Assembly (NCBI GenBank): GCA_017450585.1
Contig: JAFSTI010000030.1
Span: 110 to 64,109, forward strand
DNA: 64,000 nucleotides
Source of the DNA: Bacteroidales bacterium
GTDB taxonomy: Bacteria; Bacteroidota; Bacteroidia; Bacteroidales; UBA932
Direction: 5' to 3'
The first letter of the stretch is position 1. Each line of letters begins with the position of its first letter. Shown here piece by piece: positions 3,205 to 10,495 of this stretch. The notes beneath the pieces were generated by a model. That model saw only the letters and a program-made list of their open reading frames with translations, was not told where the DNA came from and searched no databases. The translations under genes and the position numbers were made by a program.

Positions 3205-4230
3205 TTACTTAATTGTTACTCCAGTTCCTTCGATCACCTTACCTATTACGGTAGCCTTGTCGCCGTGCGAGGCGAGAATCTCGATAGCACGAGGGGCATC
3301 TGCGGCAGGCATTGCGATGACCATTCCGATACCCATATTGAAGATGTTGAACATCTCGCGGTGAGGGATTCCTCCCCATTTCTCGAGCATACGGAAGACG
3401 GGAAGGATTTCCCAGCTGCCCTCGATAACCTCGACTCCCTGGCCTTCGCGCAGAATACGGGGAATATTCTCATCGAAACCGCCACCGGTAATGTGGCTGA
3501 TGCCGTGCGCATCGCAATTTGCGATAACATCCAGCACCTGCTTCACATAGATACGGGTAGGCTCCAGGAGAGTTTCACCGAGAGTGCGGCCGCCGAACTC
3601 AGCGACGCTCTGTTTCAGAGAAAGGCCGGCATCGGCAATTATCTTGCGCACCAGACTGAAACCGTTTGAATGGACGCCTGTGGACGAAATACCGACCAGC
3701 ACGTCACCTACGGAAACCTTGCTGCCGTCGATGAGCTTAGACTTTTCGACCACACCGGTGGTATATCCGGCGATGTCATATTCACCGTCAGAATACATTC
3801 CCGGCATCTCGGCCGTCTCGCCGCCGACCAGCGCACAGCCTGCCTGACGGCAACCCTCTGCCACGCCTGCGACAATCGCCTCTACCTTTTGAGGAATATT
3901 GTGTCCGAGCGCCACATAATCCAGGAAGAAGAGCGGCTCCGCTCCTTGCGCCAGGACGTCGTTCACGCACATGGCCACGGCATCAATACCGATGGTATCG
4001 TGCTTATCCATCTCGAAGGCCAGTTTTAATTTGGTTCCGACACCGTCGGTCCCGCTGACAAGTACAGGCTCTTTAATCCCGAGAGCGGAAAGGTCGAACA
4101 TTCCTCCGAATGATCCGATACCACCCATCGAACCCTTGCGGGATGTCGATGCAACATGCGCCTTGATGCGCCTGACTACCTCATATCCGGCTTCCAGGTT
4201 TACGCCGGCTTTTTCATATGAAACTGCCAT
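3205..4230 (-). CDS. purM: AIR synthetase (phosphoribosylformylglycinamidine cyclo-ligase)
   Basis: [49 protein letters not shown] and FNMGIG motifs. Confidence 0.98.
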
Positions 4231-4233
4231 ATT

Positions 4234-5595
4234 TTATTCGTCTTGTTCGTAATCGTATTGGTACAGTGCCGTAGGATACTCGCCATTAAAGCATGCAAGG
4301 CAGAGTTCGGAGCATCCGAACGAAGATGCTCTGGTGCTTTCGTGGCTGAGATAGCCCAGTGAATCAGCGCCTATGGCGATGCGGGCCTCCTCCAGCGTCC
4401 GCGTGGAGCAGAGAAGCTGGTCGGGAGTCGTCGTATCTACGCCATAGAAGCAAGGATGAGTCATCATCGGGCTGGCGATACGTACATGAACCTCCTTAGC
4501 GCCGGCGTCGCGCAGCATATTCACGATTTGCAGGCAAGTCGTACCGCGAACGATCGAGTCGTCCACGAGCACGATCCTCTTGTCTTTGACAATACTGCGT
4601 ACAGCTGCAAGTTTGATGTGTACGACCTTCTCACGCATATCCTGACGCGGCATAATGAAAGTACGGGTGACGTAACGGTTCTTGATCAATCCCATTTCGT
4701 ACGGCAGACCGCTTTCTTCAGCATAGCCCGATGCGGCGGAGAGAGATGAATCAGGCACGCCGACCACTATATCCGCATCGGCGGGGCACTCGCGGAAAAG
4801 GCGGCGTCCGGCCTCTTTGCGGAAGGCGTGGACATTACATCCGTCTATATCGCTGTCCGGACGGGCCAGATAGATATACTCCATCGCACACATCATATTC
4901 TTATGGAACTGAGAATACTGGCGGGACCTCAATCCATGATAGTCGATGGTCACCACCTCACCGGGCTTGACGTCACGGACCATCTCCGCTCCGATGAAAT
5001 CGAATGCGCAGCTCTCGCTGCTGACCACATAACCGTCACCCAGTTTGCCGATGCAAAGGGGTTTGATACCGAATTTGTCGCGGCAGGCATAGATACGGTT
5101 TTTGGTCATAATCACGAAAGCAAATCCGCCCTCAACCATATTCAGGGCGCTGATGATGCTGTTAATGCGATCCTCTGAGGCCTGTTTCTTAATAAGGTTA
5201 GCCAGCAGTTCGGCATCAGTATCAGTCTGGAATATGCAGCCGCGGTTTTCCAGATAGTCGCGGATCTGACGGCCGTTTACAAAACTGCCGTCGCCCACTA
5301 TGGCGAAGTCTCCGCTCTTATGGCTGAATACTAGTGGCTGGACGTTGTCCAGTCCGGCCTTGACTCCCCCGGCGTAGAGTGTACCGCCAAGGCCTATGCT
5401 GTCGTCGCGTTCTGCTAATTTGGCAGCATCGAAAATATCATTGACGAGGCCGATGCCCCGGTGATGATGACATACTCCGTCCTCAGAGAACGTGGCAATC
5501 CCGGCGCCTTCCTGGCCCCGGTGCTGAAGCAGGTGCAGTCCATAATAGATGACCGAACCGGCTTTCTTTACTCCATATACACCAAATACTCCCAT
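4234..5595 (-). CDS. purF: Amidophosphoribosyltransferase, Bacillus-type with Fe-S cysteines; glutaminase domain appears inactivated
   Basis: LQHRGQEGAGI, EYIYLARPDS, VPDS, VDDSIVRGTT, PCFYG and CLACF motifs are intact; the N-terminus is MGVFG with no catalytic Cys1. Confidence 0.93.
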   Translation of the reverse strand: MGVFGVYGVKKAGSVIYYGLHLLQHRGQEGAGIATFSEDGVCHHHRGIGLVNDIFDAAKLAERDDSIGLGGTLYAGGVKAGLDNVQPLVFSHKSGDFAIVGDGSFVNGRQIRDYLENRGCIFQTDTDAELLANLIKKQASEDRINSIISALNMVEGGFAFVIMTKNRIYACRDKFGIKPLCIGKLGDGYVVSSESCAFDFIGAEMVRDVKPGEVVTIDYHGLRSRQYSQFHKNMMCAMEYIYLARPDSDIDGCNVHAFRKEAGRRLFRECPADADIVVGVPDSSLSAASGYAEESGLPYEMGLIKNRYVTRTFIMPRQDMREKVVHIKLAAVRSIVKDKRIVLVDDSIVRGTTCLQIVNMLRDAGAKEVHVRIASPMMTHPCFYGVDTTTPDQLLCSTRTLEEARIAIGADSLGYLSHESTRASSFGCSELCLACFNGEYPTALYQYDYEQDE

Positions 5596-5599
5596 GGCT

Positions 5600-6313
5600 T
5601 CAGGCGTTTAATCGTTTAAGAACTTCTTCGTAACCTCTGTAGATGTCTCCCATGTCGTGACGGAAACGATCCTTATCCAGAATATCTCCGGTCTGTTTGT
5701 CACGCAGCCGGCAACGGTCCGGACTAAGTTCGTCACTGACAATCAGACGTCCGTCGTAGCGTCCGAACTCCAGTTTGAAGTCCACAAGCTCGATTCCGCA
5801 TGCGTCGAAACGGGCGCTCAGTATCTTGTTCACCTTGTGAGCGGTCTCAATGATGTAATCTACCTCATCATAATTGACCATTCCAAGCGCGACGGCCTCG
5901 TCCCCGTTGATGGGCGGATTGCCGAGAGCGTCGTTGTTGTAGCGGAACTCGACCACCACGTTGGGGGTACGGAAACCTTCCTCCAACCCCAGGCGGTGAG
6001 CCAGGGATCCGGCGATGCGGTTGTGCACTACGACCAGAAGGTCCACAAGCGATATCTTGCGGCATAGCTGCTCGCGTTCACCGTTCTGGGCGATGTAATG
6101 AGTGCTGATGCCCTCTTTCTCCAGTGTCTGGAACAAGATTCCGGAAATCTGGTTGTTAAGGCATCCCAGACCCTTGAAGCGGGCCCTTTTTACTCCGGCA
6201 TAGGCTGTGGCGACATCCTTGTAGCGGATAATCACCTCATCGGCCTTGGCCGTGGAGTAAATCTGCTTTTCGTTGCCATCGAAAAGCAAGTCCTTCTTTT
6301 CAATACTAACCAT
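5600..6313 (-). CDS. purC: SAICAR synthetase homolog with several substituted catalytic residues
   Basis: DFKLEFG, DELSPD and DKDRFR motifs plus position between purL and purF; start moved to ATG at 6313 (MVSIEKK), overlapping the purL stop. Confidence 0.9.
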   Translation of the reverse strand: MVSIEKKDLLFDGNEKQIYSTAKADEVIIRYKDVATAYAGVKRARFKGLGCLNNQISGILFQTLEKEGISTHYIAQNGEREQLCRKISLVDLLVVVHNRIAGSLAHRLGLEEGFRTPNVVVEFRYNNDALGNPPINGDEAVALGMVNYDEVDYIIETAHKVNKILSARFDACGIELVDFKLEFGRYDGRLIVSDELSPDRCRLRDKQTGDILDKDRFRHDMGDIYRGYEEVLKRLNA

Positions 6314-9300: not shown

Positions 9301-10028
9301 AACTCGTCTTTCAGGAATGAATCATCGATTTTAATATCCGTCAGGGTCGAAGTGAAAGTGGTATGACGGCAGTGGTCGCTCCAGTATGTGTCCAGAATAC
9401 GGAGTTCAGTCTCGGTGGGATTCCGTTTTTCGCCCTTGAAATACTTCACGACCTCCCGGAGATCGTCCGCGTTCATTGCGAGGCCCCATTTCTTGCAGAA
9501 CGGAGCAAGCTGATCCTCTGTCATATCGGTGAATCCGCTCATGTCGGCGAGGGGCTTAACTTCAGCCGACTCGCTGAAGTCCAGCTTCGAAAGGTCTTTT
9601 TCGCGACATTCCACCGCATTGATGAAATAGTGGCGGATAGCATTCAGCTGCTCATCGCCCAGATCGTCATCAAAAACGAGCAAGCGACTGCTGCGGATCT
9701 TGATATCGGCCGCAGGGTCGATTAGATGGACGCAGTCCACGGCTGATGATGCCCTTTGGTCAAACTGGCCCGGAATGTACTCGACGCTCAGGTACCGGCG
9801 GCCTTCCAGAGGGAAATCTTCACTGACCACATCGGTGACCGTCTCTCCGAAGACCAGGTATTTGCTCTTTTCCAGGAGTTCGTCACTGAATCCCGCGAGG
9901 TCATAGACATTCAGAAGACGCAGGCTACGCATCTTCAGCGAAAGATTCTCGTTGAACTCCCGCAGAAGGCTGGCAGCCTCTACCCGGAACCCTTCCTTTT
10001 TCTCAACAAATATTCTTTTGTAACTCAT
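6306..10028 (-). CDS. purL: FGAM synthase, large fused type with intact glutaminase domain
   Basis: WSDHCRH, ETHNHPTEIEPFGGAATC, GGKDSMSG, PGTNC, LGICNGFQAL, SHGEG and MGHSER motifs. Confidence 0.97.
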   Translation of the reverse strand: MSYKRIFVEKKEGFRVEAASLLREFNENLSLKMRSLRLLNVYDLAGFSDELLEKSKYLVFGETVTDVVSEDFPLEGRRYLSVEYIPGQFDQRASSAVDCVHLIDPAADIKIRSSRLLVFDDDLGDEQLNAIRHYFINAVECREKDLSKLDFSESAEVKPLADMSGFTDMTEDQLAPFCKKWGLAMNADDLREVVKYFKGEKRNPTETELRILDTYWSDHCRHTTFTSTLTDIKIDDSFLKDELNCTLEEVKRIRTELGRSEKPLCLMELATIGARYLRSKGLLDDMEQSEENNACSIFVDVDVDGKTEKWLLQFKNETHNHPTEIEPFGGAATCLGGAIRDPLSGRAYVYQAMRVTGAGDIWKPVKDTMPGKLPQRVISRKAAAGYSSYGNQIGLATTHVREIIHEGYTAKRLEVGAVVGAVKAANVRRESPAPGDVILLLGGRTGRDGIGGATGSSKEHTEASLETCGSEVQKGNAPEERKLQRLFRRPEVTRLIKKSNDFGAGGVSVAIGELAAGLDIWLDRVPLKYSGLNPTELAISESQERMAVVVEASARAEMEEYCRRDNVEVTYVADVTDRGRMRMFYKGQTVADISRDFIDSAGAPHYAAACIAAVEDRDPFAVKPVGAGLEEKMCGVLSSANVCSQKGLIENFDSTIGRSTVLMPFGGRYQASETQVSVQKLPVDGYTDTASIMAFGYNPFLSSWSPFHGAAFAVVDACAKVVAAGGDWSGMRFSYQEYFERMTHDPHSWGKPLSALLGALKMQLSLGLPSIGGKDSMSGTFEDISVPPTLIAFGITTVDAAKVISTDFKKPGSSIWYFRPPVLKNHMPDTAALTEGWNRIHSAIAEGKILSAWACGFGGAAEGLAKMSFGNALGVNITLSEDELFYLCYGGMLLETDMDLSDAANFKCIGKVTDGTFTVNGQKLDPARLQDSCEGRFSQVYPAAVPAQHPDMDIDTRAVCSLPYREADKCSKPLVYLPVFPGTNCDYDTAKAFRSAGAEVITDVFCNLTPEDVNASIRRMADNIGRCQILGFCGGFSAGDEPDGSGKFIADIIANKLISKAIEDHLAGGGLILGICNGFQALIKSGLLPYGRTGALTPDSPTLFRNDINRHISQMVTTRVCTTASPWLSGFREGELHTVAVSHGEGKFVISEDMAKELFEKNLVAFRYADPVSGEPTMASPANPNGSFYAIEGIISPGGQILGKMGHSERYEKNVFKNISGNLDQHLFRNAVNYFQKTNG

Positions 10029-10495
10029 TATATCTGGGATGAAAGTACTTTTTCCGCCTGTGCGGCACGGTAAGAATCAAGTTTTGCACTGAGCTCAGGC
10101 TCACTGAGAGCCAAGATGCTAACCGCAATAAGGGCTGCATTTTTCGCTCCGTCGATAGCGACCGTCGCAACCGGAATACCGGAGGGCATCTGTACCATCG
10201 AGAGCAGAGAATCCAGACCTCCGAGATTCTTTGAGGCAATGGGGACGCCCACCACCGGGAGCGTAGTTAACGCGGCGGTCATGCCTGCCAGGTGAGCGGC
10301 ACCGCCGGCCCCGGCTATCAGGACGGCCACGTCCCTGTCTCTGGCACCCTTAACGAATTGAGTGAATTCGACCGGAGTACGGTGTGCACTGAGGACTTTC
10401 TTCTCGTAAGGAACGCCAAACTGCTCCAGTATATCGCAAGCGCCCTTCATCACGGGCCAGTCACTTGCAGAACCCATTATAACACTGACTTTCAT
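10028..10495 (-). CDS. purE: N5-CAIR mutase / AIR carboxylase
   Basis: IMGSASD, SAHRTP, AGGAAHL and [11 protein letters not shown] motifs; start set at ATG 10495 (MKVSVIMGS). Confidence 0.97.

Follow-up and report, generated by a model that had tools for sequence, protein, structure and literature searches.

A divergent PurC paralogue with a remodelled ATP/Mg subsite accompanies a cysteine-less PurF in a purine operon of gut Bacteroidales

The window analysed here is a stretch of 64,000 nucleotides from contig JAFSTI010000030.1 (assembly GCA_017450585.1). The source genome is a 2.18-Mb Bacteroidales MAG of 218 contigs, with 90% completeness and 3% contamination, and MAG incompleteness weakens any claim of absence made from it. 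Contigs related to the window come from rumen and gut MAGs, some of them labelled Candidatus Cryptobacteroides. On its minus strand the window carries a tightly packed operon in the order pyrB-pyrI, purE, purL, a PurC-like gene, purF′, purM, purH and purD. The purine genes are the following:

10028–10495, minus strand: purE, class I type (SAHR plus a second motif); the ATG at 10495 is probably where the protein truly starts, for a length of 155 aa
6306–10028, minus strand: purL, large single-chain FGAM synthetase of 1240 aa; its stop codon overlaps the start of V
5600–6313, minus strand: purC′ (product "V"), short-form PurC paralogue of 237 aa with a remodelled ATP/Mg subsite (N14, E15, L49, L93, H97, N126, N132, R204)
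4234–5595, minus strand: purF′, cysteine-less amidophosphoribosyltransferase with the N-terminus MGVFGV, co-inherited with V as a two-gene module
3205–4230, minus strand: purM, single copy in the genome
1661–3196, minus strand: purH, single copy in the genome
263–1657, minus strand: purD, single copy in the genome

Translation of 5600–6313 on the minus strand yields an uninterrupted protein of 237 aa. The purC′ ATG (6313–6311) and the purL stop codon (6308–6306) lie within an 8-nt overlap, ATGGTTAG, and the purC′ TGA (5602–5600) is found 4 nt upstream of the purF′ ATG at 5595. The first-pass annotation had described an intact reading frame tightly coupled to purL and purF, and these junctions bear it out. 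The genes purD, purH, purM, purL and purE occur once each in the genome, all in this operon, which is the genome's only purine operon and in which V fills the classical purC slot. A longer purE reading frame, extending to 10663, overlaps pyrB-pyrI; in related loci, purE encodes 155–162 aa.

V matches the Pfam family SAICAR_synt (PF01259) end to end (205.9 bits, residues 10–234). Against the NCBIfam purC equivalog TIGR00081 it reaches 179.5 bits, below the cut-off of 189.9, whereas the canonical operon PurC L010 scores 251.4 bits. An AF2 model of V, with a mean pLDDT of 91.3 and a pTM of 0.89, confidently predicts a PurC fold. The closest solved structure, PurC of Clostridium perfringens (3nua), has the same fold and length and aligns from end to end (E = 3e-73, 249 bits), but carries the canonical residue at every position that is changed in V.

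The motif changes and intact motifs quoted in the first-pass annotation were all found where it had placed them. The changed motifs of V are FDGNEK (11–16), FKGLGCLNN (46–54), DLLVVVHN (91–98), YNNDALGNP (125–133) and CRLRD (201–205); DFKLEFG (178–184), DELSPD (194–199) and DKDRFR (213–218) are intact. The intact motifs, in the form DFKLEFG, DE.SPD..R and DKDRFR, are common to V and the short-form SAICAR synthetases of known structure (3nua, 2ywv, 4fe2 and 2gqr/2gqs). In contrast, 3nua, 2ywv and 2yzl read GKAK, a glutamate at the E90 position, VRN and YK.D...DP, where V reads GNEK, DLL, VHN and YNND...NP. In E. coli numbering, the changed positions are K11 (N14 in V), A12 (E15), the lysine of GKG (L49), E90 (L93), R94 (H97), K123 (N126), D129 (N132) and W201 (R204). 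The residues K13, D125, D175, K177, E179, D191, R199, K211 and R215 are kept, as K16, D128, D178, K180, E182, D194, R202, K214 and R218. Among the changed residues, R94 is one that we take, from the E. coli structure, to contact the 5′-phosphate of CAIR.

Residue roles in V were assigned from the mechanism of human PAICS (PMC9376930) and from motif spacing. In a quantum-chemical study of PAICS, K17, K19 and K131 contact ATP, E97 and D137 are shared ligands of MgB and MgC, K191, K228, R232 and T40 bind aspartate, and E193 and D207 lie in the ATP/MgA region (PMC9376930). E97 and D137 thereby hold the second and third Mg2+ ions, which bridge the γ-phosphate of ATP and the carboxylate of CAIR (PMC9376930). 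By spacing, PAICS residues K17, K19, E97, K131, D133, D137, K191, E193, D207, R215, K228 and R232 correspond to positions 14, 16, 93, 126, 128, 132, 180, 182, 194, 202, 214 and 218 of V. This mapping also fits the ends of the HMMER alignment to 2h31, and the E. coli numbers given in the first-pass annotation are consistent with it. The SAICAR synthetase domain of PAICS (2h31, 6yb8/6yb9) thus shares a homologous active-site scaffold with V, but its K17, E97, K131 and D137 are replaced by N, L, N and N, and V is not fused to PurE.

Of the three lysines that contact the ATP phosphates, K11, K13 and K123 (human K17, K19 and K131), only K13 remains, as K16. The ligands of the second and third Mg2+ ions, E90 and D129 (human E97 and D137), are absent and are replaced by L93 and N132. 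Retained are the residues of the first Mg2+ and the nucleotide (K13, E179 and D191), the ribose and phosphate contacts (D175, S100 and R199) and the aspartate-binding residues (K177, K211 and R215).

Canonical residues prevail at the changed positions in related proteins. In the 109 cluster representatives closest to V (215–300 aa, drawn from 1.8 billion clusters), the canonical residue is found in 82% at K11, 89% at the lysine of GKG, 81% at E90, 97% at R94, 86% at K123, 84% at D129 and 82% at W201. Two canonical PurCs from the same operon position, L104 and L010, are 45–46% identical to V and keep all 15 of 15 key positions, seven of which differ in V. Because equally diverged PurCs keep the complete set, the changes in V are targeted at the active site and do not simply follow from divergence. 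At codon 204 (window 5702–5704), the motif CRLWD reads CRLRD in the source genome only; the tryptophan is present in an 86%-identical relative and in all other family members. W201R may be a real lineage-specific change, or it may be an assembly or consensus error.

V belongs to a large family. A word-indexed search returned relatives of about 240 aa by the thousand, named in the databases only as Bacteroidales PurC or SAICAR synthase, and a scan of GTDB species genomes located family V at 386 loci in rumen and gut Bacteroidales species. The reading frame was intact, with no frameshifts or stops, in 80 of 80 retrieved loci (the best 80 of the 386), and in these the gene order is, almost without exception, purE-purL-V-purF′-purM-(purN)-purH-purD.

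A comparison of 97 V sequences with 64 canonical ones revealed only four strongly conserved, non-conservative differences, all of them in the triphosphate/Mg pocket. At position 14, lysine (100% of canonical sequences) is replaced by asparagine in 95% of V. The A15E change, which places a glutamate in the phosphate loop, is fixed in 100% of V. R97H is found in 73%, and K126N in 100%, although position 126 had served to select the V set. In the phylogenetic tree, V forms a clade (support 0.987) in which the changes accumulated stepwise, K123N first and K11N thereafter. R94H arose at least twice within the clade, and E90 was independently replaced by Q, V, L, H, Y, A and N. Basal members retain E90, R94 and D129. 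The signature of the whole family comprises only K11N and K123N (plus A12E), with R94H and the loss of E90 occurring later and more than once. The subclade of the window gene (17 leaves, support 0.994) adds the change of GKG to GIG or GLG, of E90 to V or L, and D129N; GLG, E90L and D129N are specific to this subclade, and W201R is confined to the source genome. K13, D125, K177, E179, D191, R199, K211 and R215 are fixed in the clade on the tree, and K177 and E179 are additionally gone in some V proteins of genomes that bear a further PurC homologue, U, described below (L097, L099 and L107).

Sequence evolution of V is strongly constrained. Between V and its nearest relative, L111 (86% identity), dN is 0.091 and dS 0.89, giving an omega of 0.10; the adjacent PurF′ fragment has an omega of 0.025 in the same comparison. 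Over 634 pairs, which are drawn from within the family and are not independent of one another, the median omega is 0.102 for V, 0.087 for purF′, 0.129 for purM, 0.164 for purL and 0.119 for both purH and purE. V is thus as constrained as the enzymes that surround it, which leads us to reject pseudogenisation. The first-pass annotation had read the changes as repurposing rather than random decay and had proposed that orthologs be inspected for frameshifts and for purifying selection. The low omega, the intact reading frames and the fixation of N14, E15 and N126 all speak for its reading.

A whole-genome Pfam search identified exactly two PurC homologues in the source genome, V and a long form. 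The long-form PurC, of 321 aa, is encoded on contig C153 between purA and purB, at L001:1318–2283 on the minus strand, has the canonical catalytic residues and scores 455 bits against NF009251 (cut-off 371). Proteins of this Bacteroidetes/yeast type (about 320 aa) share the Pfam family and the genome with V and presumably bind the same ligands, but are barely detectable with V by BLAST. Bin contamination was considered as the source of the long-form gene and rejected: the contig has a GC content of 0.553 against 0.547 for the genome, and the same type is found above its cut-off in 182 of 201 genomes of the same family, each at least 90% complete. Judged from its sequence, the long-form PurC on C153 is the real SAICAR synthetase of the source genome, and the second purC for which the first-pass annotation had suggested a search is thereby found.

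The same 201 genomes reveal how V is distributed relative to other PurCs. Of these, 39 encode a short PurC in the operon, and 37 of the 39 also hold the long form or U. The two remaining genomes (G238 and G077) have an operon PurC that keeps E90, R94, K123 and D129. The lone operon PurC of G077 is fully canonical, and that of G238, the "GVSIK" PurC, is canonical except for its glycine-rich loop (K11V, K13I). A degenerate V as the sole PurC was found in none of the 201 family genomes, a negative whose weight is limited by the incompleteness of MAGs. In the window's own subclade, the long form is likewise present in five of five genomes checked. The GVSIK type, in which K11 is replaced by V, lies at L096:1474–2205 (G238) and also occurs in L012–L014. 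Because it is the sole PurC homologue of the 97%-complete genome G238, the lineage may be able to do without K11.

The third homologue, U, is a protein of 226 aa, about 28% identical to V and with about 85% conservation among MAGs of Bacteroidales and Clostridia. It keeps GKTK, E90, R94, K123, D129, K177, E179 and D191, its ATP, Mg and CAIR residues are complete, and the C-terminal aspartate-binding motif DKDRFR is absent. U resembles V in being a divergent, operon-borne PurC homologue below the TIGR00081 cut-off. The two differ in their losses, which are complementary (U lacks DKDRFR, V the ATP/Mg residues), and in that U replaces a missing long form: it was found in exactly five of the 201 genomes (G082, G123, G146, G154 and G208), all of which lack the long form. 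On Oscillospiraceae contigs, a pyr-pur super-operon has U as its one purC, placed as in the classical purE-purC-purF order. Since U and the long form exclude one another, and since the Oscillospiraceae operons have no purC other than U, these two proteins would be the catalysts and V an additional one. A complementary heterodimer of U and V is ruled out here, as the source genome has no U.

Several observations on U stand beside these results. U is encoded, for example, at L036:3055–3735 (plus strand), lies upstream of purE in 17 of the best 80 related loci and is often annotated as "hypothetical". At L100 (G154:C17:138149–138850), the Pfam match to U crosses one in-frame TAG, located beyond the end of the 226-aa match to the U profile. 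The Oscillospiraceae super-operon is exemplified by L134:1–18687, with the gene order pyrC-carB-pyrK-pyrD-pyrF-pyrE-pyrB-pyrI-purE-U-purF-purM-(formate/nitrite-transporter-family gene)-purN-(PurO-like IMP cyclohydrolase)-AICARFT-purD-purL. The PurF of L134 also lacks the N-terminal cysteine (MGGFFG). The resemblance between L134 and the window's operon type suggests a clostridial origin for the latter.

With regard to the remaining purine genes, no purK was found above the TIGR01161 cut-off in the whole genome, although its PurE is of class I; the best match, of 167 bits on contig C74, is probably purT. The idea that V might substitute for the missing PurK has nothing in its favour, because the ATP-phosphate contacts are lost in V, and the high CO2 of the rumen offers a simpler explanation.

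Every PurC of the V type that has a purF downstream adjoins a cysteine-less PurF, with an N-terminus of MGV... or, in a few cases, MSV... or MAV.... Canonical and GVSIK operon PurCs adjoin a Cys-containing PurF, and in operons of the same genus that lack purC, purL is followed directly by a Cys-containing PurF. At five loci, V occurs without an adjacent purF. Over 1596 locus pairs, the pairwise identities of V and PurF′ are strongly correlated (Spearman rho 0.80); the correlation is 0.34 for V and the equally adjacent purL, −0.05 for V and purM, and −0.06 for PurF′ and purM. V and purF′ therefore have a history distinct from that of their flanking genes and behave as a two-gene cassette. The association is one of co-inheritance and possibly goes back to one ancestral event. 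In the first-pass annotation, V had been proposed as a partner of altered PurF and PurL proteins. The PurF part of this proposal is upheld by strict co-occurrence and the correlation of identities, which speak for co-inheritance rather than for physical contact; for PurL, only translational coupling was found.

PurF′ is probably an ammonia-dependent enzyme. In the source genome a second purF, on contig C18, retains the catalytic cysteine (...EECGVFGV...). PurF′, unlike V, serves as the sole copy of its kind in some high-quality genomes (G268, G263 and G082), which agrees with its being a working enzyme. On C18 (8 kb; L117), a second carB-like reading frame (1079 aa) lies beside the Cys-containing canonical purF (C18:6562–7905); these duplicate two genes that, in the operon, encode versions lacking a glutaminase function.

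V can thus be described by three features of a pseudoenzyme: residues of the parental chemistry are lost, the reading frame is intact and under purifying selection, and a presumably active paralogue is encoded in the genome. A known pseudoenzyme partner of an active paralogue is the AdoMetDC prozyme of trypanosomatids. V resembles it in the loss of catalytic residues, in purifying selection and in the presence of an active copy alongside; any interaction or activation by V is putative.

One might suspect that V is a redundant purC on its way to becoming a pseudogene, as the genome has a canonical copy at another locus, V, with a mean pairwise identity of 72%, is conserved less than any other gene of the operon, and W201R is unique to the source genome. 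This is scarcely credible for a gene whose reading frame is unbroken in every one of the 80 retrieved loci, whose omega is about 0.10 and whose product has a confidently predicted fold. The constraint on V could instead be that of a working SAICAR synthetase with a remodelled site, using, for instance, one-metal chemistry or having E15, D128 or H97 as substitutes, and acting as an isozyme redundant with the long form. V holds the canonical purC position in the genome's only purine operon, is under purifying selection equal to that on the neighbouring enzymes, and retains K13, K177, E179, D191, R199, K211 and R215. K11 is apparently dispensable in the related sole-copy GVSIK PurC, and E90, R94 and D129 are present in basal V. 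However, the two residues that hold the second and third of the three Mg2+ ions have been lost, together with K123 and R94, and E90 has been exchanged many times for chemically unrelated residues, as expected of a disused site. In addition, none of the 201 high-quality genomes has V as its sole PurC, and L097, L099 and L107 have also lost K177 and E179. We consider an active isozyme unlikely.

An enzyme with a new chemistry or substrate, which retains the phosphoribosyl and aspartate subsites, dispenses with γ-phosphate transfer from ATP and acts together with PurF′, appears unlikely to us. No missing step of the pathway points to a candidate reaction, the site around position 93 varies within the family, and no precedent was found in the literature searched. 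Yet fixation of the replacements themselves (N14, E15, N126 and, for the most part, H97) suggests that selection favoured a new site and that more than simple loss took place, the triphosphate pocket has changed in charge by about −3, and V is tightly co-inherited with the ammonia-type PurF′.

The explanation that we favour, with slightly more confidence than doubt, is that V is a PurC paralogue disabled in catalysis but still able to bind ligands, and that it makes up a module together with PurF′. V would be a folded, operon-expressed protein that has lost the canonical SAICAR-synthetase machinery and is kept by purifying selection for another role. It would no longer make SAICAR through the known three-metal mechanism, may still bind a nucleotide and/or an aspartate-like ligand, and would serve the operon-encoded pathway as a non-catalytic accessory with a regulatory, stabilising or intermediate-handling function. 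Its most probable partner would be the ammonia-dependent PurF′. Several points count against a non-catalytic V. Some of the lost residues are possibly dispensable, as the GVSIK protein, a sole PurC, lacks K11; early V may be active, as basal members keep E90, R94 and D129; and the fixed E15 is a possible substitute metal ligand. V also occupies the classical purC slot of the genome's only purine operon, and its co-occurrence with the long form may just mirror the long form being ancestral in the family (182 of 201 genomes).

A bolder proposal, which we hold to be quite improbable, is that V and the cysteine-less PurF′, acting as a unit of two proteins, carry out or control the first purine step in a new way. 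V might, for example, bind and hand on the labile phosphoribosylamine, by means of its retained pockets and the acidic E15 site, or might couple aspartate- or ammonia-derived nitrogen to PurF′. If true, this would be the first described non-catalytic or neo-catalytic subunit with a PurC fold in the bacterial purine pathway.

PurC is treated as a housekeeping enzyme with one function, and genome annotation names every member of family V "SAICAR synthetase". In the literature on PurC paralogues, purine-pathway pseudoenzymes and Cryptobacteroides purine metabolism, we found no degenerate PurC paralogue or pseudoenzyme of the purine pathway. Should V prove active, the list of essential PurC residues would be redefined; either way, metabolic reconstructions that count V as purC can be wrong. 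If V is non-catalytic, it would represent, as far as the literature searched shows, an undescribed kind of pseudoenzyme in a core bacterial biosynthetic operon, and it would give a way to study how purine synthesis organises its unstable first steps in gut habitats rich in ammonia.
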